From: an uncultured Alphaproteobacteria bacterium
GTDB lineage: Bacteria > Pseudomonadota > Alphaproteobacteria > Rs-D84
DNA: 64,000 nt
Assembly (NCBI GenBank): GCA_905234185.1
Contig: CAJOGC010000005.1
Span: forward strand, 936 to 64,935
Direction: 5' to 3'
Shown: piece after piece, positions 3,319-64,000 of the stretch
Layout: each line of letters begins with the position of its first letter
Numbering within the stretch: position 1 is the first letter of the stretch
Position numbers and translations under genes: made by a program
The notes under the pieces: generated by a model
Seen by the model: only the letters and a program-made list of their open reading frames with translations
Databases searched by the model: none
Told to the model about the DNA's origin: nothing

Positions 3319-3430
3319 TTTTCTAACCTTTTTTATGTTTTTGCGGACACATTATGCATGCACCCAGCACAAAAGTCAAGAAAAATCAATGCGGTATTAT
3401 TATACCATACCGTGGCACGGGCGCAGAATT

Positions 3431-3463
3431 CCATTCGCTGGCGAATGGGTGTCACGAAGTGAC
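3431..3463. repeat. Compound hairpin element CCATTCGCTGGCGAATGG + GTGTCACGAAGTGAC. Same family as the elements at 63513..63658 and 63697..63840
   Basis: The 15-mer GTGTCACGAAGTGAC occurs at 3449, 63533 and 63718. Each is preceded by a CC(C/A)TTCG…CGAAGGGG-type hairpin. Confidence 0.6.
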
Positions 3464-4045: not shown

Positions 4046-4072
4046 AAATCGCCCAATCGGGCGGTTTTTACA
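4045..4072. terminator. Bidirectional rho-independent terminator (CGCCCAATCGGGCG + T-run) between the small ORF and argS
   Basis: Hairpin plus flanking A- and T-runs. Confidence 0.6.
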
Positions 4073-5786: not shown

Positions 5787-5800
5787 TAATACCCCACAAA

Positions 5801-7081: not shown

Positions 7082-7085
7082 TGTT

Positions 7086-33795: not shown

Positions 33796-33869
33796 GCGGG
33801 CGTGGTATAATGGTAGCACGTCAGCTTCCCAAGCTGAAGACGAGGGTTCGATTCCCTTCGCCCGCACCA
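33796..33869 (+). tRNA. tRNA-Gly (anticodon CCC)
   Basis: GCGGGCGTGGTATAATGGTAGCACGTCAGCTTCCCAAGCTGAAGACGAGGGTTCGATTCCCTTCGCCCGCACCA. Near-identical to canonical tRNA-Gly(CCC). CCA is encoded. Confidence 0.92.
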
Positions 33870-40633: not shown

Positions 40634-41866
40634 ATGCAACGGCCAGAACCCGCCATTTCACCAAATACCATTTTCAGCGTTTCTGACGCATCTGCATTAC
40701 TCAAAGGCGTCGTAGAAACCGCGTTTCCACGTATAAAAATTCGTGGTGAACTGTCACAAATTACGCGCGCGACTTCGGGACATATGTACATGACGATAAA
40801 AGATTCCGGGGCCGCAATTTCTATGATTATATGGCGCGGCACCCCGGTTGCTTTTAAGTTGGAAGAAGGACTAGAGGTCATAGTCACCGGCCGTTTCACA
40901 ACATATCCCGCACGCAGCAATTATCAAATTGTGGTCAGCGAAATTGAAATGGCGGGCGTCGGCGCAATTCTTAAAATGCTGGAAGAACGAAAGCAAAAAT
41001 TATCCCGCGAAGGATTATTCGACGCATCGCGTAAAAAGCCCCTGCCACGTCTGCCACAAACAATCGGTGTCGTGACCAGTCCGACCGGTGCCGCGTTCCA
41101 AGATATTCAGAATCGTCTGCGCGAACGGTTCCCTGTTCATGTATTGCTGTACCCCGCCACGGTCCAAGGGGCAACCGCCGCAACCGAGGTTGCCGCCGGA
41201 ATTGAATATTTCAACCGCATGAATAATGTCGATGTCATTATTGTCGCGCGCGGTGGCGGCGCACTGGAAGACTTGTTGCCGTTTTCCGAAGAAATTGTTG
41301 TTCGTGCCGCCGCGGCAAGTCACATTCCGTTGATTTCCGGTGTTGGGCACGAACCTGATTGGATGCTTATTGATTTTGCGGCCGATGTGCGCGCGCCAAC
41401 ACCAACCGGCGCCGCAGAAATGGTTGTGCCAACGAAACTGGCGTTAACCCAGGAAATTGATAATTTATGGCATCGGTTATCAGGCGCATTTATGACCCGA
41501 TTGGGACATGCCAAACAACGCATCGAATCTATTAATATAAAAAGTCCGCACCAGGTTATTATGGAACATCAGCAACGCGTTGATGACACCGCACGAACAA
41601 TGGATATACTTATGTCTACAAAAATACAAAACGCACATCAAAAAATGGCGTTGTTTATCGGGTTTGATAACATCTTAGACCAACGAATGGGCGCGATGGC
41701 TCAATCAATTACGCACATGGGGCAAATGCTAAATAGTTTAAGTTATAAGAGTGTTCTGTCCCGCGGATACGCGATTGTTCGCGACAGTAAAAACAAAATT
41801 ATTACGCGCAGTGACGGCGCCACCCCCGCCAGCATTGAATTCACTGATGGAGTGTTGAAGTTATAA
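40634..41866 (+). CDS. xseA: Exodeoxyribonuclease VII large subunit
   Basis: OB-fold N-terminus (…VSDASALLKGVVETAFPRIKIRGELSQ…) followed by the catalytic domain. Confidence 0.88.
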   Translation: MQRPEPAISPNTIFSVSDASALLKGVVETAFPRIKIRGELSQITRATSGHMYMTIKDSGAAISMIIWRGTPVAFKLEEGLEVIVTGRFTTYPARSNYQIVVSEIEMAGVGAILKMLEERKQKLSREGLFDASRKKPLPRLPQTIGVVTSPTGAAFQDIQNRLRERFPVHVLLYPATVQGATAATEVAAGIEYFNRMNNVDVIIVARGGGALEDLLPFSEEIVVRAAAASHIPLISGVGHEPDWMLIDFAADVRAPTPTGAAEMVVPTKLALTQEIDNLWHRLSGAFMTRLGHAKQRIESINIKSPHQVIMEHQQRVDDTARTMDILMSTKIQNAHQKMALFIGFDNILDQRMGAMAQSITHMGQMLNSLSYKSVLSRGYAIVRDSKNKIITRSDGATPASIEFTDGVLKL

Positions 41867-41876
41867 GGGGGGCAAC

Positions 41877-42269
41877 ATGATTTACACGGGCTATTGGGCA
41901 AAAATCAATGACTATATTGCCGATGAACTAACGCCGGTTGGTATTTCCGGTTGGTCGCCAGATGGGTATACTGGTAAGACATATAAGAAACTGGCCCCGA
42001 AATATTCGTGGTGGCACGAATGGCATGACAAAAACTTGTCCGAACAATGGTACACAAAGAAATATTATGAAACGGTGTTAGACAAATTAAATCCTGATGC
42101 GATCGCAAACGAATTACAAACACTTGGCAAAAATGTTGTATTGCTCTGTTTTGAATCCCCAGACAAATTCTGTCATCGACATATTGTCGCAAAGTGGTTG
42201 TCTGAAAAAGCAAATATAACTGTTATGGAATATAAATTTTTATCGAAACAAGCACAACTAAAACTGTAA
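41877..42269 (+). CDS. DUF488-family protein
   Basis: 130 aa with the characteristic LLCFESPDKFCHRHIVAKWL motif. Confidence 0.65.
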   Translation: MIYTGYWAKINDYIADELTPVGISGWSPDGYTGKTYKKLAPKYSWWHEWHDKNLSEQWYTKKYYETVLDKLNPDAIANELQTLGKNVVLLCFESPDKFCHRHIVAKWLSEKANITVMEYKFLSKQAQLKL

Positions 42270-43919
42270 TTACTTAATCAATGTTTTTGCGGTGGCAATG
42301 GATTCAGGTGTTATTTCCGCACCACTTATTATCCGCGCAACCTCAGCCACCCGTTCGTCCCCGGTGATTTCGCACACAGTTGTTGTTGTCTTATTATCAC
42401 GAACACTTTTTTCAATCTTGAAATGATGATCGGCAAAACCGGCAACCTGGGCAGAATGCGTGACGACCAATGCCTGGGCAGATTCTGCTAGTTTATTTAA
42501 ACGCAATCCGACCGCCGATGCGGTCGCGCCACTGATTCCCGTATCAACCTCGTCAAAAACGAATGTATGTGCACCGGTATCCGTTATTAAGACAACACGC
42601 ATCGCCAACATTAAGCGTGCCAATTCCCCACCAGATGCCGATTTATGCAGTGGTGCAAATGGCGACCCGGGATTTGTTTTTATCATAAATGTGATGTCAT
42701 CAACACCGGTCGCAGTTGGATCAGTTTCCATCCGTTCAACCATAAAATCTGCGTTGCCTAACTTAAGGTCAGGAAATTCACCCCGTAAACGCTTTCTTAA
42801 TTCTTCGGCAGCAGCCAATCGCGCCGTGGTTAATTTAGATGCACACGCGTCAAATTTCGCACGAAAAACATCAACATCATGCGTAAGTTTCTTTAATGCC
42901 GCATCGGAATTATCAATTGTTTCCAGTTGTGCGGACATTTGATTCAATTTTTCAGGCAGTTCATCCGCAGAAACACGATGCTTTCGCGCGGCCGCACGAA
43001 TAGCAAATAATCTTTCCTCGATTTCATCAACACTGGTCATATCCATGTCGGGCGTTGTCACGTGCGCGGCAACATCCGCCAATACGTCCGCCACTTCGTA
43101 AAGTTTTTCGATTTGGTCCGCATATGGGTTTGGTTCGGTCTTTATTCTTTCCAAAATGTGCGCCACATCAAATACAAAAGAATCCAGTGATTTACCATTC
43201 GGATTCATCGCCGCATTCGCTTCAGATACAATTGCTGCGTTTTTTTCCGCGTTCATAATCGCAGTGCGTTTGTCGGATAATTCAGATTCTTCCCCGGTTC
43301 GCACATTAAGCGCACGCAATTCCGCGACATTGTGTTCAAGATATTCGCGCTCGTCCGCCGCACGTGCAACTATTTCGCGCAATTCGTGCAATCGTAAATC
43401 CGCAGCGTGATATTCGCCGTACGCGTTGTGCGTGTCCGTCAACAAATTGGAATACCCAGGAATATTAGCAATGGCAAATTCATCCAGTGCCGCAAGGTGT
43501 GTTGATTGGTCCAACAAGCGATGATTCGCAAATTGGCCGTGTATTTCCACCAATCCATCGCCAACAACATGCAATACCCTGACCGACACCGGAATATCGT
43601 TTATCCATGCGCGACTTTTGCCGTCCGCCGACAATGTGCGACGCAAAATAAGATTATCGTCCGCATCGATGCCATTTTCGGTCAAAATCGCACGAACAGC
43701 ATCGGGGACATTATCAAATTCCGCGGATACCGATGCCACATCACACCCAGAACGCACCAATCCCACATCCGAACGCGCACCCAGTGCCAATGACAACGCG
43801 TCCAACAAAATACTTTTACCCGCGCCGGTTTCACCAGTCAAAATATTAAGCCCCACGCCGAATTCTATGTTCAGTTTTTCAATTAATACTATATTAGAAA
43901 TGTTTAGTGCGGTTAACAT
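42270..43919 (-). CDS. recN: DNA repair protein RecN (SMC-like ATPase)
   Basis: Walker A GETGAGKS. Coiled-coil middle region. C-terminal signature and Walker B. Confidence 0.9.
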   Translation of the reverse strand: MLTALNISNIVLIEKLNIEFGVGLNILTGETGAGKSILLDALSLALGARSDVGLVRSGCDVASVSAEFDNVPDAVRAILTENGIDADDNLILRRTLSADGKSRAWINDIPVSVRVLHVVGDGLVEIHGQFANHRLLDQSTHLAALDEFAIANIPGYSNLLTDTHNAYGEYHAADLRLHELREIVARAADEREYLEHNVAELRALNVRTGEESELSDKRTAIMNAEKNAAIVSEANAAMNPNGKSLDSFVFDVAHILERIKTEPNPYADQIEKLYEVADVLADVAAHVTTPDMDMTSVDEIEERLFAIRAAARKHRVSADELPEKLNQMSAQLETIDNSDAALKKLTHDVDVFRAKFDACASKLTTARLAAAEELRKRLRGEFPDLKLGNADFMVERMETDPTATGVDDITFMIKTNPGSPFAPLHKSASGGELARLMLAMRVVLITDTGAHTFVFDEVDTGISGATASAVGLRLNKLAESAQALVVTHSAQVAGFADHHFKIEKSVRDNKTTTTVCEITGDERVAEVARIISGAEITPESIATAKTLIK

Positions 43920-51000: not shown

Positions 51001-53085
51001 TTAATCTTCTAAAAAGCTCTTTAATTTACGCGCCCTTGTTGGGTGTTTAAGTTTATTAAGGGCTTTCTGTTCAATCTGGCGGATTCGTTCACGGGTCACA
51101 CCGATATATTCACCAACCTCTTCCAGGGTGCTGGTTTTATTAGTGCTCATACCGAAACGCTGGCGCAGGACCGTTTCTTCCTTTGGGTCTAATTCGGACA
51201 GAATTTGTGTGACAATTTTACGCAGGTTCTTTTGTGCCGCCGATGTAAATGGATTTTTCGCAGTTTCGTCCGCGATAATTTCGATACGGCTGCTATCATC
51301 TTCGGTGCCAACGGGTGCCTCTAATGAAATTGGTTTAAGGTTAACTTTCATCGCCTTGTGAATCTTGTCAACCGGCAGATAGATAATCTTGGACAATTCT
51401 TCGGCGGTTGGGGTGCGGCCATATTTATGCATAAATTGCCGTGATGCGCGCTGAATTTTATGAATATTATCAATCATGTGAACCGGTATACGAATAGTGC
51501 GTGCTTGATCTGCTATACTGCGGGAAATGCCCTGTTGAATCCAGTTTGTTGCATATGTTGAAAACTTGTTCCCCAAACGATAATCAAATTTATCAACCGC
51601 CTTCATTAACCCGATATTTCCATCCTGGACCAGGTCGGAAAAATCCAACCCCAGACCGCGATTGCTGGACTTTTTGGCGAATTTGATAACCAGACGCAAG
51701 TTCGCCTCTATCATTTCGCGTTTCGCACGGGCCGCTTCGGTTTGTCCACGACGAACCAATTCCACAACCTTTTTATATTCCGCGGTTGGTTGGCCGGTTT
51801 CGAATGCGATTGCGGTAATATCGTCCTGGATCTTTATGATATCTTTTTCGTGTTTTTTAACGAAATTAACCCATACCGCATTCTTGGATTTTGCCATTTT
51901 CTTTACCCAGTTGCGATTTATTTCGTTTCCGATATATTCCGCCAAGAAATCTTCGCGTTTAATCTTGTTCGCCATGGCAAGGCGCAACAGTTTCCCTTCA
52001 AGTCCCAAAAGCAATTGGTCGCGTTTGGTTAATTGTTCTAATATTTCGGCATTACGATCATCATTAAGACGAATCTTGCTAACATACTCGAACAGTTCAA
52101 GACGCATTTTTGTGTATTTCTTTTCAAGTGCTTCATCCGGCTTAGAAGATGTCAGTAAGTTGTCCAAACGACGGGCCTGTAATTTCTGCATTCCGGTGAA
52201 CACGCGTTTGATTTTTGCGAACAAATCCAAAACCATTGGCATCAACGACTCTTCCATCACAGGAATCGGAACGCCGGACGTGCCACGTGGCGCATCTTCT
52301 TTTTTGATGCCATCTTCATCTTCTTCGTCATCTTCATCATCTTCGTCATCGGATGCCGTAGATTCTTCAAGGTCGTCCAAATCATCATCATCCAGGTTGT
52401 CAACATCATCAACCCCTTTGGATTTAAGCGCCTCGGACAACGCAGCCAGGGATTTTTGTTCGGATTCAGACGAATACATCACTTCCAAATTCACGATATA
52501 ACGCAAACGAATATCTTCGTTCAACAATTGTTGATACCAATCCAACATTGCACGAATTGTCATTGGACTTTCACACAAACCGTACACCATTAAACGGGAT
52601 GCGGCCTCTATACGTTGGGCAATGGCGACTTCCCCGGCGGCAGTCAACAACTGCACCGTTCCGATTTGTTTAAGATAAGATTGTACGGAATCCTGGCCCC
52701 CAAGAACCAACGAACCAGTTTGGCTGCGCTCCAATTGCTTTGCAAAGTGTTCATAATCTTCGTCATTAACATCAACTTGTTCCGCATCGGCATTCAACAA
52801 ATTGCGCGTTTTATCACGATTTTCTTCGCTGTCTTCGTCTTCGTAATATTTCTCTATATTTTTGGAATAGTTGTCGGTTTCCAGCATTTCCAAACCCAAA
52901 TCTTGGGTAAAGAAGTCCATAACCTCTTCCTGTTCACTGGCCGGCACTTCGTCTGCTTCATTGGCGGCATTAAAATCCATTTGGGAAAAATAGCCAACTT
53001 CGACCGCAGATGTCGCTAATTTCTGAAGATTTTCCGGCAACGAGCCGATTAATAACTTGGTTGCGTCATCAAGTTTCTTTGCCAT
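51001..53085 (-). CDS. rpoD: RNA polymerase sigma-70 factor RpoD with an acidic insert
   Basis: Regions 1.1 to 4.2 are present. Acidic stretch DDDDLDDLEESTASDDEDDEDDEEDEDG. Confidence 0.95.
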   Translation of the reverse strand: MAKKLDDATKLLIGSLPENLQKLATSAVEVGYFSQMDFNAANEADEVPASEQEEVMDFFTQDLGLEMLETDNYSKNIEKYYEDEDSEENRDKTRNLLNADAEQVDVNDEDYEHFAKQLERSQTGSLVLGGQDSVQSYLKQIGTVQLLTAAGEVAIAQRIEAASRLMVYGLCESPMTIRAMLDWYQQLLNEDIRLRYIVNLEVMYSSESEQKSLAALSEALKSKGVDDVDNLDDDDLDDLEESTASDDEDDEDDEEDEDGIKKEDAPRGTSGVPIPVMEESLMPMVLDLFAKIKRVFTGMQKLQARRLDNLLTSSKPDEALEKKYTKMRLELFEYVSKIRLNDDRNAEILEQLTKRDQLLLGLEGKLLRLAMANKIKREDFLAEYIGNEINRNWVKKMAKSKNAVWVNFVKKHEKDIIKIQDDITAIAFETGQPTAEYKKVVELVRRGQTEAARAKREMIEANLRLVIKFAKKSSNRGLGLDFSDLVQDGNIGLMKAVDKFDYRLGNKFSTYATNWIQQGISRSIADQARTIRIPVHMIDNIHKIQRASRQFMHKYGRTPTAEELSKIIYLPVDKIHKAMKVNLKPISLEAPVGTEDDSSRIEIIADETAKNPFTSAAQKNLRKIVTQILSELDPKEETVLRQRFGMSTNKTSTLEEVGEYIGVTRERIRQIEQKALNKLKHPTRARKLKSFLED

Positions 53086-53106
53086 GTAAAACCCTTTGGA
53101 ATTAAA

Positions 53107-53658
53107 TTATTTGCTTTTCTTTTGAGATTTTTGCGCTTTTGCAACGGCGTCACGAATTGCGGATTCCGAAACCAATCCCAAAACAACCGGACTCTGAATC
53201 TGAATTGATGAAATAGATTTGTCCGAAAAAGACTTGTGCGTTTTGTTGCGAATTGACGCCACCGTTGGATTAGTGCTGCGCATCAGGCGGGCAATTTGAC
53301 CATCAGACAATTCTGGATAATTTTTCAGAATCCATAAAATGCCACCAAGCCGATTTTGGCGATGTAATTTAGGCGTATATCCAACACCCTTTTTGTTTTG
53401 GGCGTTTTGCGCATCGACAATTTCCTGGCGCAAAGTAAGGCGCGCAGACGGATCCGCTTCGCACATTTCGATATCTTCACGCGTCACCTGGCCATTCAGA
53501 ATTGGGTTCAGACTCTGGACCTTGCTATTTTCAGCATCGGCGATATTTTTTATTTCTAATTCATGAAGACCGCAGAATTCCGCGATTTGCTCGAAAGTCA
53601 ATGCTGTGTTTTCAATCAACCACAGCGCCGTAGATTTTGGCATGTATGGATAGTTCAT
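53107..53658 (-). CDS. Conserved alphaproteobacterial hypothetical protein (DUF1013-like)
   Basis: N-terminus MNYPYMPKSTALWLIENTALTFEQIAEFCGLH resembles the DUF1013 family. RBS AGGGGA. No dnaG upstream of rpoD. Confidence 0.45.
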   Translation of the reverse strand: MNYPYMPKSTALWLIENTALTFEQIAEFCGLHELEIKNIADAENSKVQSLNPILNGQVTREDIEMCEADPSARLTLRQEIVDAQNAQNKKGVGYTPKLHRQNRLGGILWILKNYPELSDGQIARLMRSTNPTVASIRNKTHKSFSDKSISSIQIQSPVVLGLVSESAIRDAVAKAQKSQKKSK

Positions 53659-53732
53659 GGAAATTCCCCTAATGTTAACGGCGCTTAATATAGACCAGAA
53701 TGCGCAAAATTTCAAGTGTTTTTTTCAGATTT

Positions 53733-55148
53733 TTATGCTTTTTTGGTCAATTTTGGTCCCGTTGGTGTATCGGTCAAAACCCAGCCCGCCGCGTCTATTT
53801 CGGCACGCAACGCATCCGCGGTTGCCCAATCTTTTGCGGCTTTCGCGGCGGTGCGTTTTTCAGCCAGTGCCACAATTTCCGCCGGTGCGACTTCTGATTC
53901 CGCCGCCACCAACTTTTCTGCATGTTCCACAAACATCAATCCCAACAACCGGTCAACAAATTCAACCAGCGCAATCTTGGTTGCATTATTTACCGAATTG
54001 TCACGCAATAATTCCTGGAAAACAACCAGTGTTTCCGCGGTTTTAAGGTTGTCTGATGTCGGCGCCAACAATTTATCGTGCCAGGTGTCATAGACCGCCC
54101 CGTCCAGTTCGCCCGATTTGTTCGCAATAATGTCGGCCACACGACGCACAATATTTTTATACCCGTTCGCCGCCGCATCCAAACTTTCAAATGAAAACTC
54201 TACCGGCTGGCGATAATGCCCAAGGGTCACAAGGTATCTGTATGCCATTGGATCATATCCCTTTTCAATCAACGTCCTAACCGTCCAGAATGAACCAGAC
54301 GATTTGGACATTTTCCCGTCTTTCAGCACCAACCATGCCCAATGCACCCAATACGAAACCCAAGGTTTCCCAACAATAGGTTCACTTTGTGCAATTTCGT
54401 TTGTATGATGTACCTTGATATGTTCTTGACCCCCGGTATGAATATCAAAATGGTCGCCCAGGTATTTCATACTCATTGCGCTGCACTCCAAATGCCAGCC
54501 AGGGAACCCGACACCCCACGGACTGTCCCATTCCATTTGACGTTTGGTATCGGTTGGTGAAAACTTCCACAACGCAAAATCGGTTATGTTGCGTTTGTTA
54601 TTATTTTCAATACGCGCCCCACCCCGTAATTCGGAAAGATTTTGTCCACCCAATTCGCCATAGGTTGGTAATTTCGCCGTATCATAATAAATGCCATCGC
54701 CCGGTATTTCATAGGTATAACCTAGTTTTTCCAATTTTTGAATTAGTTCTATCTGTTCTTTGATATGGTCGGTTGCACGCGGTGTTACGGTTGGCGGAAT
54801 TATGTTTAATTCGTTCATATCGGCAACGCAGTTGTTAATATATTTTTTAGCAACTTCCCATACAGACATATTTTCGCGCGCCGCCCCCTTTTCCATTTTA
54901 TCGTCCCCGGTATCTTCATCACTGGTAAGATGCCCAACATCTGTAAAATTCATTACATGATTGACATCATACCCATTTGCCAAAAACATACGTTTCAATA
55001 TATCGTTGTTAAGAAATGTGCGCATATTCCCCAGATGCTGATCCCAATAAACCGTTGGACCGCAAGAATAAAACCCCATTTTACCTGGAACCAATGGTTT
55101 GAATTCTTCAACTTTACGCGACATTGTATTAAATAATCTGATTTGCAT
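53733..55148 (-). CDS. cysS: Cysteinyl-tRNA synthetase
   Basis: KMSKS motif present. Class I N-terminus (SCGPTVY…HLGN). Confidence 0.92.
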
Positions 55149-55392
55149 GACATTTTCCTTTGTATTTTTATACGATGATAACTGATTGATTGATTTATTG
55201 CAAACAAAACATGTTCGCACGATTAAAAAAGCGAATTAACAACAACAGTAAAAATTTATAAAACGAACTGTCATATTGTTATTATCTCAACTCATCATAA
55301 GAAAGTCAAGTTTATCTCCATCATATTGACAATACATTATTATTTGTTTAGCATATTATCATGCAAGTCGTGATATAAAAAAGGCGAGAAAA

Positions 55393-56493
55393 ATGAAATT
55401 TTTCAAGAAAATTGCTCTTGGCGGCGGTTTAATGTTGGCAATTGGTACAACTAGTAACAAAGCATTTGCCCAGAGCAACAAATCAATCACCTTTCGTGAC
55501 ACCATTATTGCGCCATACAACGTTTCCACACGCGTAATACCCATTGAATTGGGAGAAAAAATAAAGAAAATATGTTCTAGCGAAACAGCCCCTAGCCGTA
55601 AATACACCGTATCTGGAACCGTTGTTGCAAATATGTTATGGGACTATGCAGAATACGTTAACGACAGCACCGTTATCAATTATAGCGAATCCGACTGTAC
55701 CGTATATGGAACTAATGGTGTAATGGTGTATAACATTGACACAACTGGTGATGGCTTAGCCGATAAAAGCGTACAATTTCCAGTCGACATTCGTAATCCC
55801 AATAAACAAACCAAATATGATAAACGTGGCAAAATAATAACATGCAATGTCAACGAATATGATAATCGTGGTGGTATGCCAATAACTAAACAGGTTTTGG
55901 TTAAAGGTGTTAATCGCCGTAAAGCACCGGATAAGCATAAATATTATGTTCGCGACTCTGGTGATGATGTCTTTGAAATTTCCGGTCGGATTGTTGCACA
56001 AAATTGGGTATCTGAATGGTGGATTACCTCTGCAGATTGGGGGAACGGCATTGTGTCGTATGGTGGCGACATAGAAGAAGCTGATTTAGTAACAATTGCA
56101 TACTTTGTAGATGTGGACGGCAATGGTATTAGTGATATATGTTTACAATACATAAAACATATTTCAGATCCAAGAGTTGCAACATCATTCATAGGTAAAA
56201 ATGTATCTTGTGAAATAAATCGTAACAAGATAAATGAATATGATTTAGATAATCCTAAATACTATAATGCTATGCCTATGCATGACAATATGAATGACAT
56301 TATTCAAAATGAAATTGGCGTCGCCTATATATTAAATCCAGAAAAATCTGATGTTTGGAGCGGCAAAATATCGTACACGCCGTATAATCCTGATGCCATT
56401 TTACAATCATTTATCACACCAGAGGTTCTGAAGAAGAAACAAATTGCCTATATGCGATATATGCAAAAACAAGCAGACAAAAAACAACATTGA
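55393..56493 (+). CDS. Secreted hypothetical protein (366 aa)
   Basis: Signal peptide MKFFKKIALGGGLMLAIGTTSNKAFA. No recognisable domain. Confidence 0.5.
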   Translation: MKFFKKIALGGGLMLAIGTTSNKAFAQSNKSITFRDTIIAPYNVSTRVIPIELGEKIKKICSSETAPSRKYTVSGTVVANMLWDYAEYVNDSTVINYSESDCTVYGTNGVMVYNIDTTGDGLADKSVQFPVDIRNPNKQTKYDKRGKIITCNVNEYDNRGGMPITKQVLVKGVNRRKAPDKHKYYVRDSGDDVFEISGRIVAQNWVSEWWITSADWGNGIVSYGGDIEEADLVTIAYFVDVDGNGISDICLQYIKHISDPRVATSFIGKNVSCEINRNKINEYDLDNPKYYNAMPMHDNMNDIIQNEIGVAYILNPEKSDVWSGKISYTPYNPDAILQSFITPEVLKKKQIAYMRYMQKQADKKQH

Positions 56494-56524
56494 TAAAAAC
56501 GCCCAAACGGACGTTTTAAATTCC

Positions 56525-56613
56525 TGGCGGAGCGTATAGGACTCGAACCTATGGACCGCTATAACACGGTCACGGATTAGCAATCCGCTGCATTACCACT
56601 CTGCCAACGCTCC
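56525..56613 (-). tRNA. tRNA-Ser (anticodon GCU)
   Basis: Reverse complement GGAGCGTTGGCAGAGTGGTAATGCAGCGGATTGCTAATCCGTGACCGTGTTATAGCGGTCCATAGGTTCGAGTCCTATACGCTCCGCCA. Long variable arm. Confidence 0.9.
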
Positions 56614-56744
56614 GAATGGTGAACGGTATTATACAGAAACAAAAAATAAATGCAAGCGTGAAAAACGCGAATATAATACAATCATTCAGGCATATTGTAA
56701 TTTACCTTGAAAAGTCGTAAAAATATTCTATATTTAGTTTCGCT

Positions 56745-58502
56745 ATGAAAGAATATATTTTGCCTTTTCGTGATTTGGTCGTGAATCCTGGTTTAACCGT
56801 TCCGATTTATATTGATAATCCGCTGTCTGTGTCGTGTATAGAAGCCGCAAGCAAAAACGGTGGCCGTATCGTCCTTGTTGCACAGCACTGTTGGGGTTAT
56901 CCCGCCAACGAGGTTGATATATACAAGGTTGGCACAATCGGCGAAATCGCCCAGGTTTTACGCATGCCGGACGGTTCATTGCACGCAATTGTTCGCACCA
57001 CAAGCGCGGTCCGTCTTTCCGGCATTGTGGTTGAAAACGGCATCTTTATGGGCGACATAACACCTATCGAAATACTAGACGACAGTGAATTTGACCAAAC
57101 TATCGCCCTGCGCGATAAAATAGCCAATAATATTCAATCAATGTCCACGGCCCGCAAACTTAAAATCGACAAATTACGCACTGTTATTCAGTCTTATCCT
57201 TTGCCGGCCTTTGTTGATACCGTTGTTCAAATGCTGGACATCGATACAGATGTCGCGATTAATATTCTTTGTGCAACGACATGGCGCGAAAAACTAATCA
57301 TTTTGCTGGAGCAAGTCAATTTGATGGCGGAAACCATGAAAATCGAGGATTCTATTAATCGTCGCATTAATCAACAAATGGAGAAAGGCCGTCGAGAGGC
57401 GATTTTACAGGAAAAAATGCGCGCAATTCAGGTCGAAATGGGCGAAAACACCGAAGAAATGGATGCAGAAAACCTGCGCGAACGCATCGAAAAGTCCCAC
57501 ATGTCTGCGGACGCCAAAGAAAAAGCACTGTCTGAATGGCGACGCATGCGCACCCTGTCCCCGATGTCGAACGAAGGCGGACTGTTGAAGGCATACTTGG
57601 ACGAAATGTTGTCTATGCCATGGAATAAGTATGACAAGCAGCCCATAGATATTCAGGCGGCCCGCGCGATTCTTGACAGTGAACATTCCGGAATGGATGC
57701 GGTCAAAGAACGCATTTTGGAACATATTGCCGTTATGAAAAAAACCGGCAAAAACAGTGGCAGCATTTTATGTTTCGTCGGCGCGCCCGGTGTTGGAAAA
57801 ACATCGTTGGGGAAATCTATCGCCGCCGCACTTGGTCGAAAATATCAACGCATATCACTTGGCGGTATTTCTGACGAGGCGCATTTCCGCGGGCACCGCA
57901 AGACCTATATCGGTGCACAAACGGGCCGCATTATGGACGCGCTTAAACGAAGCAAATCAAATAACCCCGTAATCGTGTTGGACGAAATTGATAAAATGAC
58001 GCGTGATTTTCGTGGTGATCCGGAATCTGCATTGTTGGAAATATTGGACCCGGAACAAAACAAAAACTTCCGCGATCATTATCTTGAGGTTGATTTTGAT
58101 CTGTCTAATGTTCTTTTTATTGCAACAGCAAACAGTCTGAACTTTTCCAATGCGTTAAAGGATCGTATGGAAATCATCGAAATTCCGGGATACAGCATGG
58201 ATGAAAAGGTTCGCATTGCCCGCGAACACTTGATTAAACGCGCGGCAAATGACACCGGATGGGCGGTTGAAAACATCACCATTTCGGACGATGCAATTCG
58301 CCATATCATTCAAAATTACACCAGCGAAGAAGGTGTTCGCCAATTACAACGCGAATTGACCGCTATTCTGCGCCGTGAATTGTTAAAGAACGACGGCAAC
58401 GACAAACCAACGGATTTTACACCAAATAAAATCGACGATTTATTATCACTGCAGCATTCCGCTGGATTTAGTAAAAAAATAGGATTTGGAGTAAGATTAT
58501 GA
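56745..58502 (+). CDS. lon: Lon-like protein with a Lon N-terminal domain and an AAA+ module that ends before the serine-protease domain
   Basis: Walker A GAPGVGKTS, Walker B VIVLDEIDKM, sensor-1 FIATANS. The ORF stops at 585 aa. Downstream ORFs are not protease-like. Confidence 0.78.
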   Translation: MKEYILPFRDLVVNPGLTVPIYIDNPLSVSCIEAASKNGGRIVLVAQHCWGYPANEVDIYKVGTIGEIAQVLRMPDGSLHAIVRTTSAVRLSGIVVENGIFMGDITPIEILDDSEFDQTIALRDKIANNIQSMSTARKLKIDKLRTVIQSYPLPAFVDTVVQMLDIDTDVAINILCATTWREKLIILLEQVNLMAETMKIEDSINRRINQQMEKGRREAILQEKMRAIQVEMGENTEEMDAENLRERIEKSHMSADAKEKALSEWRRMRTLSPMSNEGGLLKAYLDEMLSMPWNKYDKQPIDIQAARAILDSEHSGMDAVKERILEHIAVMKKTGKNSGSILCFVGAPGVGKTSLGKSIAAALGRKYQRISLGGISDEAHFRGHRKTYIGAQTGRIMDALKRSKSNNPVIVLDEIDKMTRDFRGDPESALLEILDPEQNKNFRDHYLEVDFDLSNVLFIATANSLNFSNALKDRMEIIEIPGYSMDEKVRIAREHLIKRAANDTGWAVENITISDDAIRHIIQNYTSEEGVRQLQRELTAILRRELLKNDGNDKPTDFTPNKIDDLLSLQHSAGFSKKIGFGVRL

Positions 58503-58876
58503 GCGAACAAGCAACAAAAACAGCCACATACCCCGATCTGGAAAATGGCCAAATGATAACTATCATAACCGATAAAGAAACGGCCAAAGCCATCCATGAA
58601 TACAACAGTATTTGTAATCAAATTCAGTCATTCAAAATAGATTCTCAGGTGATAACTGGTCTTAGTGGCCAGATTTGTGAAATATACAAAGCACAATCAC
58701 CAAAACTGAAAATCTGGTGCATAAGAAAATATCTGCCCTTGATTGACGACGATGTCTATGAATGTCGTATCGAAAGAAAGAACGACAAAGCAAATAAAGA
58801 CCCTGAATTGATTCTGGGTGGTGTGGAATACTTGTATTATAAGCTGCTTAGTAAAAACAGCGGGCGGGCAAAATGA
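58499..58876 (+). CDS. Hypothetical 125-aa protein (ATGA overlap with the lon-like gene)
   Basis: ORF only. Confidence 0.4.
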   Translation: MSEQATKTATYPDLENGQMITIITDKETAKAIHEYNSICNQIQSFKIDSQVITGLSGQICEIYKAQSPKLKIWCIRKYLPLIDDDVYECRIERKNDKANKDPELILGGVEYLYYKLLSKNSGRAK

Positions 58877-59418
58877 TTCTTGTACTGAACACATCCGGGG
58901 CCGATTTGGAATTTGTTTTGGATGACAAATATGCCCGCGTTTCTGTTGAAAAACAATCGGTTGCATTGCCCACCGAAACGGCGCGTTTTATCGCCAAATG
59001 TGGGGCAACATGGTCCGACATTTCCGCAATTGGTATCGTTGTTGGCCCGGGAAGTTTTACTGGTATCCGCTTGGGCATCGCCTATGTTAAGGGCTTAGGT
59101 CTGGGGCTGGACATCCCCGTTGTTCCAATAAACGCATTTGAATTGTATCTTGCGCAGACACCGGACGCGTTTGTCGCGATTGATTCCGGACATGGCGATT
59201 TCTTTGTTGGGGCCAAAAATTTACCGCCCTGTATTATGTCAATCGATGAAATCGAAACCAAACAAATGGAATGGCCACGCACGGTTGGACATCGCCCGTT
59301 TGACTTGAAATTAGGAACGCAAATCGTTCAAAATAAATTGGCACACCAAGGTAATGAACCAATTGTCCCGATGTATTTGCGTCCCAGTTATGTTGAAACT
59401 AATAAAAAGGAAAAATAA
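58873..59418 (+). CDS. tsaB: tRNA threonylcarbamoyladenosine biosynthesis protein TsaB (YeaZ)
   Basis: Motif …GPGSFTGIRLGIA…. Usual tsaB-rimI pairing. Confidence 0.8.
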   Translation: MILVLNTSGADLEFVLDDKYARVSVEKQSVALPTETARFIAKCGATWSDISAIGIVVGPGSFTGIRLGIAYVKGLGLGLDIPVVPINAFELYLAQTPDAFVAIDSGHGDFFVGAKNLPPCIMSIDEIETKQMEWPRTVGHRPFDLKLGTQIVQNKLAHQGNEPIVPMYLRPSYVETNKKEK

Positions 59419-59419
59419 A

Positions 59420-59749
59420 ATGGCAAACATTATTCAAAAAATATTTTTATCAAAATTCGAATGCTCTCTTATTGATGCGATAAATAAATCTGATGTGAAA
59501 ATGACGCACAACGATGATGTACAGCACATGTTTTCAACTACTTCGTACAGCATCAATAATAACAAAATGAATATTATGGCCGTACATCAGTGGCATCATG
59601 CCCAGGGCGATAACTATACACTTAATATCACCAGTGATTCTGAGTCACCACGAACACCAAACAGATATCTTGCCGATGATATTGTTGCCCATAAATTTGT
59701 ACGAAAAATATTTATGAGAATGCAACGCAAATATGCAAAACAAAAATAA
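59420..59749 (+). CDS. Small paralogue 1 of a 3-gene tandem family (110 aa)
   Basis: N-terminal MANIIQKIFLSKFECSLIDAINKSD is conserved with the next two ORFs. Confidence 0.5.
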   Translation: MANIIQKIFLSKFECSLIDAINKSDVKMTHNDDVQHMFSTTSYSINNNKMNIMAVHQWHHAQGDNYTLNITSDSESPRTPNRYLADDIVAHKFVRKIFMRMQRKYAKQK

Positions 59750-59759
59750 CGAGAATAAA

Positions 59760-60137
59760 ATGGCAAAAATCTTTCAACGTATGTTTTTATCTAAAAATAA
59801 AATTCGCATACTGGATATGATCGAAAATAATGCGGATAAAATAACGTATGATTATTACGAACACTCTTATTTTCCATACCATGAATTTACGATAAAAACA
59901 CCGACAAGCGTCCTTACATCTACATCGACCAGGGACAGATATTTGTTTAGCCGTACTTATATTTCACAATATAATTTCGCTGAAACTTTGCCAAACGGAA
60001 CCGTACACGAAGAATCCGAAGAGTTCACGCCTTTTGCTAACCGGGTTCATTCGGCTATGTTCCGCGCATTTATAAAGGCCAAGAGTATTGAGGCAATACA
60101 TAAAAAACAAGAAGATTTCCTGAAAAAACAAAGATAA
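59760..60137 (+). CDS. Small paralogue 2 (125 aa)
   Basis: N-terminus MAKIFQRMFLSKNKIRILDMIENNADKITY. Confidence 0.5.
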   Translation: MAKIFQRMFLSKNKIRILDMIENNADKITYDYYEHSYFPYHEFTIKTPTSVLTSTSTRDRYLFSRTYISQYNFAETLPNGTVHEESEEFTPFANRVHSAMFRAFIKAKSIEAIHKKQEDFLKKQR

Positions 60138-60160
60138 ATAAGTAAAAAGAGATATTAATT

Positions 60161-60520
60161 ATGGCAAGTTTTATTCACAAAATTTGGCTCACACCTGTTC
60201 AGTGCAAAGTATTGGATTTTATCAAAGAAAACGCTGATGCGGTTGAATACAAAAAAGGCAAAACGGTCGCTATTTTACCGGGTTATAACGAATATACCGT
60301 AAACCATGTATTTATACACGCAGACAATAAAGCATTACACGCGACACTTATCGCGCCCGAAAATAAGTCCCAGGATTTTAAATCGACATATTCATTTTCG
60401 TGCAAAAAACCGTGCACTAAGAAAAAATGCCCATTGCTTAATGCGACACAATCTGCTCATCACGGATTGACGACGGGTTTGCAAAAATGGTTTATGCCAG
60501 GATGTATAACAACTATATAG
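60161..60520 (+). CDS. Small paralogue 3 (119 aa)
   Basis: N-terminus MASFIHKIWLTPVQCKVLDFIKENADAVEY. C-terminal Cys-rich tail (CKKPCTKKKC). Confidence 0.5.
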   Translation: MASFIHKIWLTPVQCKVLDFIKENADAVEYKKGKTVAILPGYNEYTVNHVFIHADNKALHATLIAPENKSQDFKSTYSFSCKKPCTKKKCPLLNATQSAHHGLTTGLQKWFMPGCITTI

Positions 60521-60573
60521 AACACCAAAAAAATCGCGAGAAATGATGATAACCGCATTTCTATTGGATTACA

Positions 60574-60960
60574 ATGTTAAATAAGCTTGCCAATCTTCAT
60601 AAACAATGCTTCCCCGACAAACCATGGTCGGCATCTGATTTTGCAGAATTAAAGAAATCGGGGTGTGAAATTTTGGCGTCCGATAACGGATTTATAATAT
60701 GGCGAACAGTCGCAGACGAAGCCGAAATAATATCCATTGGGGTTGCCCCGAATGCGCGCCGTTCTGGTATCGCCGGTGCCATGATTTTGCTTATGGAACA
60801 AGAATTGAAAAAATCAGGTATTGTCAATGTGTTTTTGGAAGTTTCTGAAGTGAATATTCCGGCAAAAAAACTATATGAAAAATACGGGTTTGTACCGACC
60901 GGAAAAAGGCCCAAATATTACGATGGTACCGATGCAATTATCATGACCAAAAGGCTGTGA
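60574..60960 (+). CDS. rimI: Ribosomal-protein-alanine N-acetyltransferase (GNAT)
   Basis: 128 aa with a GNAT fold motif (…RRSGIAGAMI…). Position downstream of tsaB. Confidence 0.78.
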   Translation: MLNKLANLHKQCFPDKPWSASDFAELKKSGCEILASDNGFIIWRTVADEAEIISIGVAPNARRSGIAGAMILLMEQELKKSGIVNVFLEVSEVNIPAKKLYEKYGFVPTGKRPKYYDGTDAIIMTKRL

Positions 60961-62006
60961 AAATGAACGAAAAATCATTGTCAAAAACACACGGCAAAAT
61001 CCTGCAACGGGTTGCAAAAACAGATACAAATATACACGGGATAAGAAAGGCCGAAACAGTCCCTGCCCGCAAATTAAGCCTTGTCATATTTGGCGGTGAA
61101 AGAACTGTGAAAAACAAAGATGCAAACTGGTATATGTCGATGTTCGAGCGTCTTTTGCATTTTTATAATATACACGATGTCAACATATATTCTGCCGTTT
61201 ATGATTTCGAATCCACCAACAGGAAACCAGAACGCACAAATGCGTTTATTGCGGCCGGTCATAAAATAGCCAGGATGTATGGGGCCACAACACCCATTGA
61301 TACGCAATACATAGATGATTTATATCGAACCGTTGTCCGACCGCGTTTTATAAATAAAAACAATGAAATACTGTCAGAAATTGACGCAATAAATAATGTT
61401 CGACAACTGATTATCTTTGACCATTGTCATGGTGCCACACCGGTGCGCGCGTTCCAAGATATTATGGCATCAGATATGGAAAAATCCGGATATACACCAT
61501 CAACGATACGAAAGATTATGAAAAACCTGTTGGTTATTCAACACGCCCCCGTTGCGCCCCTGGAAAAATCGCGATTTAACACCGTCTCTTTTATGTCTGC
61601 GAATGACACACTCATGAATTTTTACAATAAAATTTCAGAATACATAGCAGATAATAATGCCGATGTATTACCGTCTTATATTTCATTGGGTAATTTTTTT
61701 GTCACCCACGCATTCACATACCAATACTTGGACGAACATTCTATTATTGGGCTGGTTCCGAATGAAATTTATGGTATGTTAACGCCGGACGGTGAAATAA
61801 TAATGGCTGCGGAACGCAATGCGATAATAAATGGCATTCGTGCCGCCCAGCAAGGCGCCCCGATGCCAACAATCCGCGAATTAATCGCCCCGGCATCTGA
61901 TAAAGATGCTATTAAACCAGACTTTGATACATTGATGCAGAACGGCGAATCCCTTATGAACATGATGCGTTATGATATGGCCCAGGAAAAATCGAAAGAA
62001 AGATAA
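60957..62006 (+). CDS. Hypothetical 349-aa protein
   Basis: ORF only. Convergent with the Pif1-like helicase, with a 5-nt gap. Confidence 0.45.
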   Translation: MKMNEKSLSKTHGKILQRVAKTDTNIHGIRKAETVPARKLSLVIFGGERTVKNKDANWYMSMFERLLHFYNIHDVNIYSAVYDFESTNRKPERTNAFIAAGHKIARMYGATTPIDTQYIDDLYRTVVRPRFINKNNEILSEIDAINNVRQLIIFDHCHGATPVRAFQDIMASDMEKSGYTPSTIRKIMKNLLVIQHAPVAPLEKSRFNTVSFMSANDTLMNFYNKISEYIADNNADVLPSYISLGNFFVTHAFTYQYLDEHSIIGLVPNEIYGMLTPDGEIIMAAERNAIINGIRAAQQGAPMPTIRELIAPASDKDAIKPDFDTLMQNGESLMNMMRYDMAQEKSKER

Positions 62007-62011
62007 CCCCG

Positions 62012-63283
62012 TCAAATATCATTGATAAAATCGACGACGCGCTGATCAAATATAACATCCCGCGGTCGCAACGGCGCAGACATGTGAATATCGGCCGCAC
62101 TGCGCGTACGCGACAGCGCGACATATGTTTGTCCATGCGCAAACGCCCCGCGCGAAATATCAACAATGACAGCATCTAAAGTTTTACCTTGGGCCTTATG
62201 TATCGTCATCGCGTACCCCAGGTTCAGCGGAAATTGTTTGTATGACCCAACCTCGGTTTCAATAATTTTGTCGTCCGCATCGCGCGAATATTCTATTTTT
62301 TGCCACTTTTCGGGCTTTACGACAACGACATCGTGCGTTTTATTTAGTAATTGGACAATTATTTCATGCGCCCCAAGTTGCTCTACAATACCCATTGATC
62401 CATTGTGCCATTTATCACCATTTTTAACAAAAACGACCAGTGCACCCTGCTTTAATGTCAGATTCATTGGCGCCGGTACATCGCGTTCAGAAAAATTGCC
62501 CGTAATTTCGCCGTTGTATGTCACATCTGGTGCAGCGATTTGATTTAACCTGTCGTCATTAATGCGTTCCGCAACCGCCCGAAACGGTGTAATTATAACC
62601 GCATTTGCGCGCCGCGATGCATCATCTATGCGACAATTATTGAAAAAATCCAGCGCCGATGAATCGTTTCCACGCAATCTCATAAGATTATCCAACAATT
62701 TATCGTCTTTTTGGCGATAAACTGTTCCGAAATTAAATGGAATAAATTCCGCACGCCGATATGCGTGCGAATCAAAGAAATATGCATTAGGGTGTTCGTA
62801 TTCGGTTGCATAGTATTTTTCCGCATCCCGCGTTATAACCGGCGGTAATTGAAACAAATCGCCAATCGCAACGATTTGGATTCCGCCAAACGGTTCATTA
62901 TTTCGCCGCGCCGCCCGCATAAGGTAATCCATTGCATCCAATAAATCCGGTGCAACCATCGATATTTCATCAATTATTAAAACATCGGTTCCACAGAGGA
63001 TATTTCGCGGCTTCGCCTTTAATTTCAACAATTCCATCATGATGAAATCGCGCGGCTGAATCTGGAACAACGAATGTATGGTTTGCCCCCCGACATTAAG
63101 TGCCGATACCGCGGTCGGACATGCACAAATAATGCGTTTTTTCGATGCGGATTTAATATAATTTACAAAAGTCGATTTTCCGGTTCCCGCCGGGCCCAGT
63201 ATAAGGATGTTAGATCGCGTATTTTCTAGTGTATTGAACGCGGCCATTTGCGATGGATTCAAAATCGGAACGATTGAAGACAT
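62012..63283 (-). CDS. Pif1-family SF1B DNA helicase
   Basis: Walker A GPAGTGKST. Motif II DEISMV. Pif1-signature GDLFQLPPV. 423 aa. Confidence 0.8.
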   Translation of the reverse strand: MSSIVPILNPSQMAAFNTLENTRSNILILGPAGTGKSTFVNYIKSASKKRIICACPTAVSALNVGGQTIHSLFQIQPRDFIMMELLKLKAKPRNILCGTDVLIIDEISMVAPDLLDAMDYLMRAARRNNEPFGGIQIVAIGDLFQLPPVITRDAEKYYATEYEHPNAYFFDSHAYRRAEFIPFNFGTVYRQKDDKLLDNLMRLRGNDSSALDFFNNCRIDDASRRANAVIITPFRAVAERINDDRLNQIAAPDVTYNGEITGNFSERDVPAPMNLTLKQGALVVFVKNGDKWHNGSMGIVEQLGAHEIIVQLLNKTHDVVVVKPEKWQKIEYSRDADDKIIETEVGSYKQFPLNLGYAMTIHKAQGKTLDAVIVDISRGAFAHGQTYVALSRTRSAADIHMSAPLRPRDVIFDQRVVDFINDI

Positions 63284-63349
63284 ATGCGTATAATGCCATA
63301 ATAAAAAATCCCTTGCAAGGATTTAAGAAACGATTATAATACCCGCCGT

Positions 63350-63426
63350 GGGTTATTAGCTCAGTTGGTTAGAGCGGAGCGCTCATAACGCTTTGGTCGT
63401 GGGTTCGAGTCCTACATAACCCACCA
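63350..63426 (+). tRNA. tRNA with CAU anticodon (elongator Met or lysidine-modified Ile2)
   Basis: GGGTTATTAGCTCAGTTGGTTAGAGCGGAGCGCTCATAACGCTTTGGTCGTGGGTTCGAGTCCTACATAACCCACCA. The anticodon stem lacks the three G-C pairs of an initiator. Confidence 0.85.
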
Positions 63427-63496
63427 CGATGATTCTCCAGACCGACATTGCAACTGGGAAATATTTTACGCCACGGGCGTTTTTTTTGTTTCCTTT

Positions 63497-64000
63497 TCCA
63501 GATACTAAAATTCCCCTTCGCGGTGCGAAGGGGTGTCACGAAGTGACGGGGTAGTTGTGGCGAGAGCCAAAGAAAGAAAAAACTTCACCACTCTTTCTGA
63601 CTACCCCGTCTTGCGTCACTGCCGTTCCGCAATCCACCCCTTCACTGTGGTGAAGGGGAATTAAACTCACTGGAATCATATTCCAGAGAATAAAGTCCCC
63701 TTCGTTGCACGAAGGGGTGTCACGAAGTGACGGGGTAGTTGTGACGAAAACCACAGAAAGTAAAAATTTTCCTCTCTTTCTGACTACCCCGTCTTGCGTC
63801 ACTGCCGTTCCGCAATCCACCCCTTCGTGCAACGAAGGGGATTTTGGAATCTGGCATCATAACTTTATTTTTACGCAATTATTCCAGAGAATTTAACTCC
63901 CCTTCACCACAGTGAATGGACGAAGTCTCGGCGAAACGAAGTGAAGGCGGATGGACAGGCGAAACGGACGGGGTAGTAATAAAACAAATTTTCACTTGCA
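63497..64000. repeat. Array of about 185-bp highly structured units (starts near 63497, 63681 and 63881). Each contains hairpin CCCCTTCG…CGAAGGGG, GTGTCACGAAGTGAC and the long inverted repeat GACGGGGTAG…CTACCCCGTC. The array runs off the window end
   Basis: Units 63513..63658 and 63697..63840 are about 90% identical. 'attccagagaat' precedes each unit. The third copy is truncated by the window edge. Confidence 0.8.

Follow-up and report, generated by a model that had tools for sequence, protein, structure and literature searches.

The subject of this analysis is a repeat array at the right-hand end of a 64,000-nucleotide stretch of DNA (hereafter the window; contig CAJOGC010000005.1 of assembly GCA_905234185.1, positions 936 to 64,935 of the forward strand) from an uncultured Alphaproteobacteria bacterium of the Rs-D84 lineage. 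The array follows a tRNA-Met gene, which lies outside the repeat, has a promoter-like site at 63313-63340 and is closed by an intrinsic-terminator-like hairpin of its own before the array begins (Table 1). The remaining window is ordinary chromosome, carrying dnaE, secA, ruvB, argS, a dnaK-like gene, trmD, xseA, a uvrD-like gene, rpoD and cysS. A covariance model of the repeat (R1), built from 90 distinct copies and run unfiltered on the window and on the sibling contig described below, identified five modules at 63507-63980 in the alternating orientation + - + - + with a spacing of 184 bp, and one weak partial match at 3430. Tandem Repeats Finder, when run on the window, did not report the array. 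As argued below, the array is probably a cluster of palindromic DNA repeats of the repetitive extragenic palindromic (REP) type, resembling bacterial interspersed mosaic elements (BIMEs).

As comparison with other genomes shows, the array is built from an elementary module of ~50 nt. It consists of AATT, a hairpin termed H1 (CCCCTTC-loop-GAAGGGG), a T, a second hairpin termed H2, the motif GGGGTAG and a further T. The outer stem of H1 (CCCCTTC/GAAGGGG) is invariant while its inner stem and loop are free, and H2 comprises a G and a variable stem-loop with a stem of 3-8 bp and, mostly, a C-GNA-G triloop. Two such modules in inverted orientation, with their GGGGTAG tails facing inward across a short spacer (in the window with AGAAAG...CTTTCT), make up a unit of ~175-205 bp, and several units follow one another head to tail in the interval that separates the converging tRNA-Met and ssb genes. 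Alignment of the units reveals a conserved frame composed of an ATTCCAGAnAAT leader, the left module, the spacer, the right module and an AATTAAACTCnCTGCAATCCG trailer; the linker between units, AATTAAACTCnCTGCAATCCG joined to ATTCCAGA, is likewise conserved. The left and right modules of the window differ in H2, which reads GTCAC-GAA-GTGAC in the former versus CGTC-TTGCG-12 nt-CGCAA-TCCA (on the plus strand) in the latter.

An earlier note on this window had described a structured repeat array after the tRNA-Met gene, and the motifs that it listed were all recovered where it had placed them, although unit 1 was observed to start with TTCCAGATACTA and not with ATTCCAGAGAAT. The same note had put two full units at ~90% identity; the direct repeats 63508-63585 and 63692-63769 share 86% identity over 78 nt (period 184 bp), and those at 63579-63643 and 63762-63826 share 94% over 65 nt (period 183 bp). 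A third unit does start at 63881, as had been proposed, on the plus strand, while its module is a divergent long variant with a 37-nt insertion in H1, whose folding is no better than that of shuffled sequences. The inverted-dimer make-up of each unit had been overlooked. The relative that had been pointed out at 3431-3463 is real: it has the H1 hairpin CCATTCG-CTGG-CGAATGG followed by GTGTCACGAAGTGAC, an intact H2 and a lost GGGGTAG tag, and it sits between the convergent open reading frames (ORFs) 2363-3160 (+) and 4068-5786 (-).

Table 1. Features of the tRNA-Met repeat locus and of the outlying copy in the window; bit scores refer to covariance model R1 unless stated otherwise.
Feature	Position	Strand	Details
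Decayed single module	3430..3463	+	8.9 bits, partial match
tRNA-Met (CAT)	63350..63426	+	ARAGORN; Rfam tRNA 69.7 bits; context, outside the repeat
Intrinsic-terminator-like hairpin with T8	63468..63487	+	ACGCCACGGGCGT then TTTTTTTG; closes the tRNA unit before the array
Unit 1, inverted dimer, tails inward	63495..63679		left flank TTCCAGATACTAAAATT, right flank AATTAAACTCACTGGAAT; terminal inverted repeats 24 nt (79%)
Module 1L	63507..63558	+	H1 CCCCTTCG-CGGTG-CGAAGGGG; H2 GTCAC-GAA-GTGAC; GGGGTAG; 56.3 bits, E = 1e-18
Unit 1 central spacer	63559..63596		small hairpin TGGC-GAGA-GCCA; AGAAAG...CTTTCT around an A-rich loop
Module 1R, inverted	63597..63664	-	plus strand CTACCC-CGTC-TTGCG...CGCAA-TCCA-CCCCTTCAC..GTGAAGGGG; 39.9 bits
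Unit 2, inverted dimer	63680..63857		terminal inverted repeats 40 nt (85%)
Module 2L	63691..63742	+	H1 loop TTGCA; H2 as in module 1L; 52.8 bits
Module 2R, inverted	63780..63846	-	H1 the exact reverse complement of that of module 2L; 38.0 bits
AT-rich spacer between units 2 and 3	63858..63880		unlike the junction AATTAAACTCnCTGCAATCCG between other units
Unit 3 start, clipped by the window end	63881..64000	+	divergent long-variant module at 63893-63980, 21.2 bits

Units and modules alike fold far more stably than shuffled sequences, the unit 3 module excepted. A fold check that had been proposed for one unit gave -94.5 kcal/mol for unit 2 as RNA (z = -12.7), the other strand being nearly as stable, and as DNA unit 1 folds at -44.9 kcal/mol (z = -7.1), module 1L with z = -4.8 and the decayed copy with z = -3.2. 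In units 1 and 2 alike, the arms of the long inverted repeat GACGGGGTAGT/ACTACCCCGTC pair without a mismatch (100% complementarity). The 22-mer GTGTCACGAAGTGACGGGGTAG had no match in 100 shuffles, and the same was true of the hairpin CCCCTTC-N7-GAAGGGG.

The distribution of the module was assessed by scanning a species-representative genome collection (genome_contigs) with the pattern CCCCTTC-N5-9-GAAGGGGTG-N8-20-GGGGTAG, which leaves H2 unspecified. At least 118 stretches were matched, while chance would be expected to give ~1 (assuming uniform composition, 23 fixed bases, 65 gap combinations and both strands of 596 Gb). Among the matches listed, record titles place the loci in six phyla, with 65 loci in Bacteroidota, 29 in Alphaproteobacteria (including metagenome-assembled genomes (MAGs) of Rickettsiales, and Candidatus Enterousia), eight in Ignavibacteriota, five in Polaromonas (Betaproteobacteria), four in Gammaproteobacteria (Arenimonas, Francisella, Francisellaceae and Caedibacter), three in Ghiorsea (Zetaproteobacteria) and one each in Spirochaetales, Endomicrobium, Oscillospiraceae and an unclassified record. 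For the rarest taxa the contigs are short MAG pieces, and these loci could reflect misbinning. Bacteroidales copies combine AT loops with an H2 of GCC-GAA-GGC or CCC-GAA-GGG, and alphaproteobacterial copies have the H1 loop GCTGGC and an H2 of the form GGAC...GAC; the subfamilies thus track taxonomy, and the spread is therefore not due to a single contaminant. The repeat is common to gut-associated Alphaproteobacteria, rumen Bacteroidales, Ignavibacteria and some phages. One Rickettsiales MAG (JAITCH01) is dense in modules, with ~20 model matches in four sampled chunks, and a further locus of a Rickettsiales MAG (L022, 1-1042) carries direct tandem runs of modules with a period of 71 bp. In a scan of viral contigs the pattern was present in five loci only. 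Two of these, from IMG/VR, are a Mu-like phage with an rve/Mu transposase and an AAA protein (L134; seven modules in intergenic gaps) and a tail-gene region (L136; five modules in intergenic gaps), and phages could be carriers of the module family between hosts. A plasmid search with the consensus module returned nothing relevant. A 48-mer of unit 3 had no match in metagenome_contigs, and the 22-mer gave seven loci, every one from another organism. Neither these searches nor those with the helicase and SSB described below, the former of which added no contig on repetition, yielded the continuation of this strain past 64000.

The structure of H2 is under selection, as shown by covariation. A perfect stem of 4 bp or longer is present in 64 of the 82 distinct H2 sequences, versus ~10% of shuffles. 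In an alignment of 147 distinct copies, 95% of the cells are paired and the covariation score is 0.175, compared with 0.050 in shuffles and reached by none of 500; this alignment was fitted to the model and is thus biased to pairing, and the independent count on the 82 H2 sequences agrees with it. When the partner is shifted by one column, pairing falls to 65-68%. At the two variable H2 pairs the counts of CG/GC/UA/AU are 49/36/6/2 and 77/24/10/23. GNA triloops occupy 40 of the 82 H2 loops (GAA 23, GTA 6, GCA 6 and GGA 5), 36 of the 40 being closed by C-G. The d(C-GNA-G) motif is a classic, unusually stable DNA mini-hairpin, and these triloops are a hint that the hairpin acts as DNA. In 27 of the 82 H2 types the remainder of the sequence reads GG(A)...(G)AC, that is, CGTC...(T)CC on the opposite strand.

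Placement was evaluated on the 150 best hits in 100 loci (L003-L102). These form 118 clusters, of which 91 are single modules, 23 pairs, three triples and one a quadruple. Paired modules are arranged tails-in 15 times, heads-in eight times and in tandem nine times, and AATT stands at both outer ends of the tails-in dimers. The modules are mostly intergenic, with flanking genes convergent in 26 cases versus divergent in nine, and within 200 bp of genes 100 modules lie past 3' ends and 64 ahead of 5' ends. Modules past 3' ends are on the same versus the opposite strand 60 and 40 times overall (28/20 in Bacteroidota, 19/11 in Alphaproteobacteria and 13/9 in others). Module orientation splits 55/51 with respect to local GC skew and 51/36 with respect to the majority gene strand, and across ~100 modules no strand bias against genes or GC skew was detected. 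Fourteen of the 91 single modules lie in ORFs of at least 150 aa; these could be in-frame insertions, as in Rickettsia palindromic elements, or the ORFs could be spurious. The module is not linked to any gene: all-against-all clustering of the ORFs gave no family that recurs beyond 10 loci, and 150 flanking ORFs scanned against Pfam hit 181 families with at most three members each, the 25 commonest being ordinary metabolism and envelope genes with no transposase among them. At one locus (L005), a glycosyltransferase gene flanked by two inverted modules was considered as a possible mover and discarded, as its product is not a transposase.

The same locus was then compared between sibling strains. 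A sibling contig (L001; ENA contig k119_656964), reached via the PIF1-family helicase gene beside the tRNA gene, maps in reverse to the whole window. It is 100% identical to the window over 52013-63659 (11.6 kb), after which identity falls to ~85%, and this break coincides with the end of unit 1. The divergent segment (window 63660 onward, L001 9624 downward) may be a tract exchanged by recombination or gene conversion; alternatively, the assembly may have switched paths at the repeat. Past the break, L001 carries a spacer, a single module (H2 GCCC-GCA-GGGC), the ssb stop codon and rho, amounting to one unit and one module in all, so that nothing except three modules lies between the convergent tRNA-Met and ssb genes. 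The 10 kb past the array encode, in this order, SSB, Rho, two small proteins, an arginase-family protein, two proteins without a Pfam match, a DUF308 protein, a small HNH protein and a ResIII helicase. A second contig (L002, from Logan) ends within the first hairpin. A further strain (L140), found by its 99%-identical SSB and 98.2% identical to L001 over rho-ssb, carries, in the orientation of the window, an inverted module, a unit with the right H2 GGGC-GTT-GCCC, a mosaic unit, a single module and ssb. The left half of the mosaic unit is that of window unit 2 (the half containing module 2L is identical to the left half of what we term unit B of L140), and its right half is the long variant found in the opposite orientation in window unit 3. 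The far side of the L140 array adjoins a different gene, which is missing from the window and from L001. Another assembly (L141) again contains the ssb-proximal part of the array. Module counts per array are three in L001, at least five in the window and, in L140, five by the covariance model and one undetected long variant. As the unit alignment indicates, halves are swapped between strains within the conserved frame. Taken together, these comparisons show the array to be real and recent and to change quickly between close strains. Relatives with an SSB of 87-89% identity have carD beside ssb and no modules. L123, which comes from a more distant relative and is syntenic with window 30.9-36.5 kb at ~76% identity, has clusters of canonical CGTC-type REPs in addition to a heads-in pair of the two-hairpin module.

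It seems likely, then, that the array represents a BIME-like cluster of REP-type repeats. This fits better than a miniature inverted-repeat transposable element (MITE) bounded by terminal inverted repeats (TIRs), because the module usually occurs alone (91 of 118 clusters). The module would act as DNA, in the form of a hairpin that is extruded or single-stranded, and not as a dedicated RNA. New loci would arise when a trans-acting, hairpin-specific enzyme mobilises a module, and a RAYT-like HUH nuclease is our leading guess for that enzyme, albeit a tentative one. The array itself may grow, shrink and turn mosaic by recombination, gene conversion or slippage between near-identical modules, and any effect on the host, such as a block to read-through between tRNA-Met and ssb, would be secondary. 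REPs as a kind are well known; the bipartite module is absent from Rfam and was not found in the accessible part of the published REP text. Some 23 module positions are identical from Bacteroidota to Proteobacteria, Ignavibacteriota and phages. We regard it as possible, if doubtful, that the two-hairpin module (H1, H2, GGGGTAG) constitutes an uncatalogued REP superfamily with a single conserved partner. If that were so, the partner would be either a hairpin-specific nuclease or transposase that travels horizontally and has so far not been connected with repeats, or a host factor of universal occurrence, and the arrays would be hotspots of reshuffling inside populations whose flanking sequences have hardly diverged.

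Several observations weigh against the REP/BIME interpretation. A search with a crude HUH...Y motif expression, together with the Pfam scan of 150 flanking ORFs, disclosed no RAYT and no other candidate enzyme, whether in the window, in ~20 kb of additional flanking sequence or in ~140 loci. Alphaproteobacteria have been reported to carry few or no tnpA-Y1 genes (PMC6006769), and CGTC-tagged REPs are described as having no dedicated transposase (PMC3733652). In contrast to a canonical GTAG REP, the module has two hairpins, with GGGGTAG located 3' of H2. In ~95 kb of the source species, modules were present only at this locus and in the one decayed copy. In the two phage-like contigs L134 and L136, 11 of 12 modules are antisense to genes, an excess that could hint at a strand-specific role. 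Finally, the differences between the window and L001 or L140 could in part be assembly path switches and not alleles, although path switching, too, would need more copies in the genome.

The earlier note had raised a MITE-like family and a structured non-coding RNA array as explanations. Of all its readings the former comes closest, in that the repeat is non-coding, palindromic, multi-copy and strain-variable, but the repeating entity is the ~50-nt module, which is usually single. A classical MITE, with the ~180-bp unit as a deletion derivative of an insertion sequence, bearing 28-42-nt TIRs, served in trans by a DDE transposase and stacked by nested or adjacent insertions, is unlikely. Its TIRs (Table 1), MITE-typical unit size, AATT at both outer ends of the tails-in dimers and strain-variable array content would all suit such an element, but a TIR-bounded element predicts neither that single modules are commonest nor that heads-in and tandem pairs occur. 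Furthermore, a target-site duplication is not discernible, no locus contains a transposase-bearing parent and the halves of the unit recombine independently. Improbable as well is a cis-acting RNA element, in which the convergent tRNA-Met and ssb genes would rely on transcribed modules for termination, insulation or 3'-end stabilisation and the array would hold several such signals one after another. The very stable folds, the enrichment past gene 3' ends and between convergent genes and the antisense modules of the two phage-like contigs are in keeping with such a role, as are the terminator-like pattern formed by minus-strand H1 with AATTTT or ACTTTATT and the single module of L001 and L140 that abuts the ssb stop codon in terminator-like orientation. 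However, no taxon group shows a strand bias past 3' ends, both orientations occur in every unit, GNA triloops are a signature of DNA rather than RNA hairpins and the tRNA gene is already followed by a terminator before the array begins. The Rfam scan speaks in the same direction, the best non-tRNA match in the window scoring 30.3 bits against a threshold of 135 and the others being chance-level microRNA or small-RNA matches, and modules of eight loci from other taxa gave no Rfam match either; the RNA array proposed by the earlier note is thus not borne out.

The proposed island boundary or attachment scar at the tRNA-Met gene can practically be set aside. The array does lie immediately 3' of a tRNA gene, and a PIF1-family helicase gene is present on the other side of that tRNA, but in the sibling contig the genes downstream of the array are ordinary ones, among them ssb, rho and one of the arginase family, and none in its 10 kb encodes an integrase (this being L001 and not the present strain past 64000). 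Moreover, stretches of tRNA-Met of at least 11 nt do not reappear downstream, and in many genomes members of the family are scattered over sites without a tRNA gene. An assembly artefact, namely a chimeric join past 63659 to another repeat locus, appears very improbable. It would account for the drop in L001 identity from 100% to ~85% exactly at the end of unit 1, for the Logan contig that breaks in the first hairpin and for the L140 array being joined to a different gene on its far side. Yet units of the same kind occur in four independent assemblies (the window, L001, L140 and L141), and a chimeric join would also imply further copies of the unit in the genome, so that the family would be real in either case.

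For annotation, a false lead is removed, as neither an RNA gene array nor an island is present at this tRNA, and the repeat explains the breaks and disagreements between assemblies at this locus. The pattern and the covariance model together provide a searchable definition of the bipartite hairpin repeat. Since Alphaproteobacteria and CGTC REPs have both been reported without RAYT partners, identification of the mover of the module would fill a gap in REP biology.

Several other features of the window were recorded. A 99-bp tandem repeat at 755-1270 (5.2 copies, 83% matches) lies inside a long minus-strand ORF and therefore encodes a protein with 33-residue repeats; the 615-aa product, as called on the sibling contig (L130, 15313-17160), has no Pfam match. 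Three tandem paralogous ORFs of 131, 134 and 119 aa, whose products start with MA.I..K.(F/W)L, are located at 59354-60520, and the one that was tested had no Pfam match. A Lon-like protein of 585 aa (56745-58502) has the LON substrate-binding domain, an AAA domain and a lid but no protease domain. The cumulative GC skew peaks at ~41000-43000, where long ORFs turn from mostly plus to mostly minus strand, which could reflect a replication terminus or merely the change in gene strand. A gene for a 169-aa HNH endonuclease (33233-33742) is situated directly upstream of a tRNA-Gly gene (33796-33869), and another small HNH gene is present in L001 ~8 kb past the array.

Among known systems, integron attC and CRISPR (clustered regularly interspaced short palindromic repeats) arrays share with the present array the serial arrangement of structured repeats, and attC also acts as a folded single strand. 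Both were rejected, as there are no spacers or cassettes and no cas or integrase genes, the units abut and single copies are dispersed elsewhere. The Correia/NEMIS elements of Neisseria are TIR-bounded bacterial MITEs. Elements of this type resemble the units in being ~100-200 bp long and non-coding, in having terminal inverted repeats and long hairpins and in differing between strains, whereas here half-units occur alone and in all orientations, and neither a target-site duplication nor a parent element was seen.

The likeness to the REP, BIME and REPIN (REP doublet forming hairpins) systems of Enterobacteria and Pseudomonas, with their RAYTs, is closer. A canonical REP is one hairpin whose basal stem measures 7-20 bp, with GT[AG]G placed 0-2 nt 5' of the hairpin foot (PMC6006769). 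The module departs from this definition, as the 5' motif on the opposite strand is CTAC; only in the units of the window is GTAG itself followed by a hairpin, of 3-4 bp. No RAYT was found in the sequence searched (see above), and REPIN families are described as lineage-specific and vertically inherited, whereas the conserved sequence of the module is common to several phyla. Conversely, hairpins with a GTAG-containing tag, inverted pairs that form a long hairpin, alternating arrays, conserved linkers, variable copy number, location after genes and compensatory changes in stems are features of both. REPINs consist of two inverted REPs and a spacer and are thought to be moved by RAYTs (PMC3337134); units 1 and 2 are each an inverted pair with a short spacer that folds into one long hairpin, and 15 tails-in and eight heads-in pairs occur elsewhere. 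BIMEs are defined as regularly spaced REPs of alternating orientation (PMC2817692), and the array displays alternating orientation, 184-bp spacing, a conserved linker and a module count that varies between strains.

Two tagged REP superfamilies, GTAG and CGTC, are described in PMC3733652, both with dimers, clusters and intergenic location. According to that text, a CGTC REP comprises an unpaired CGTC (or TGTC/CCTC), a stem of 8-9 bp beginning with A/T pairs, a loop of 4-5 nt and a 3-nt tail close to CCA (PMC3733652). The superfamily, as outlined there, is found mostly in Alphaproteobacteria but also in Bacteroidetes, Chlorobi and Spirochaetes, includes dRS3 in Neisseria and RPE-4/RPE-6 in Rickettsia, and occurs as dimers and, in some cases, in clusters (Di Nocera et al. 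2013, PMC3733652). Measured against this text, the present module differs in that H2 is mostly shorter (3-8 bp), Bacteroidota copies have no CGTC tag, the invariant H1 (CCCCTTC/GAAGGGG) and the CTACCC extension are outside the definition, and tails-in dimers, described as rare for CGTC REPs, predominate. Sequences resembling canonical CGTC-type REPs were also noted in the window at 1949 (+; CGTC-ATATCGGC-GCAG-GCCGGTAT-TCA) and at 27024 (-; CGTC-ATTTCCGC-CGGTT-GCGGAAT-TCCCA), each overlapping the end of a long ORF, and the distant relative L123 has dense mosaics of such REPs at 5580-5800 and 6830-7260 (e.g. TGTC-ATCCCGGC-CACCGA-GCCGGGAT-CCA).

On the side of likeness, both the module and the CGTC REPs are small intergenic stem-loops of similar taxonomic spread that form inverted dimers and clusters. 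The right-hand H2 of the window, CGTC-TTGCG..CGCAA-TCCA (as in module 1R), carries both the tag and the CCA tail of a CGTC REP as defined there (PMC3733652). The bottom strand of H2 in copies from Alphaproteobacteria has the layout of a small REP, tagged with CGTC and tailed by CCA; many of these H2 sequences have the form TGGA-stem-GAA-stem-GACG, and a copy in L107, likewise from a Rickettsiales MAG, fits the CGTC-1 dimensions fully (CGTC-TTTTTTGC-TATC-GCAAAAAA-T-CCA). Because the H2 of the right-hand modules and of many alphaproteobacterial copies fits the tag-and-tail scheme, the module is read as related to this family, and on comparison by published text only the closest known relative is the CGTC-tagged REP superfamily with dRS3 and RPE-4/6.

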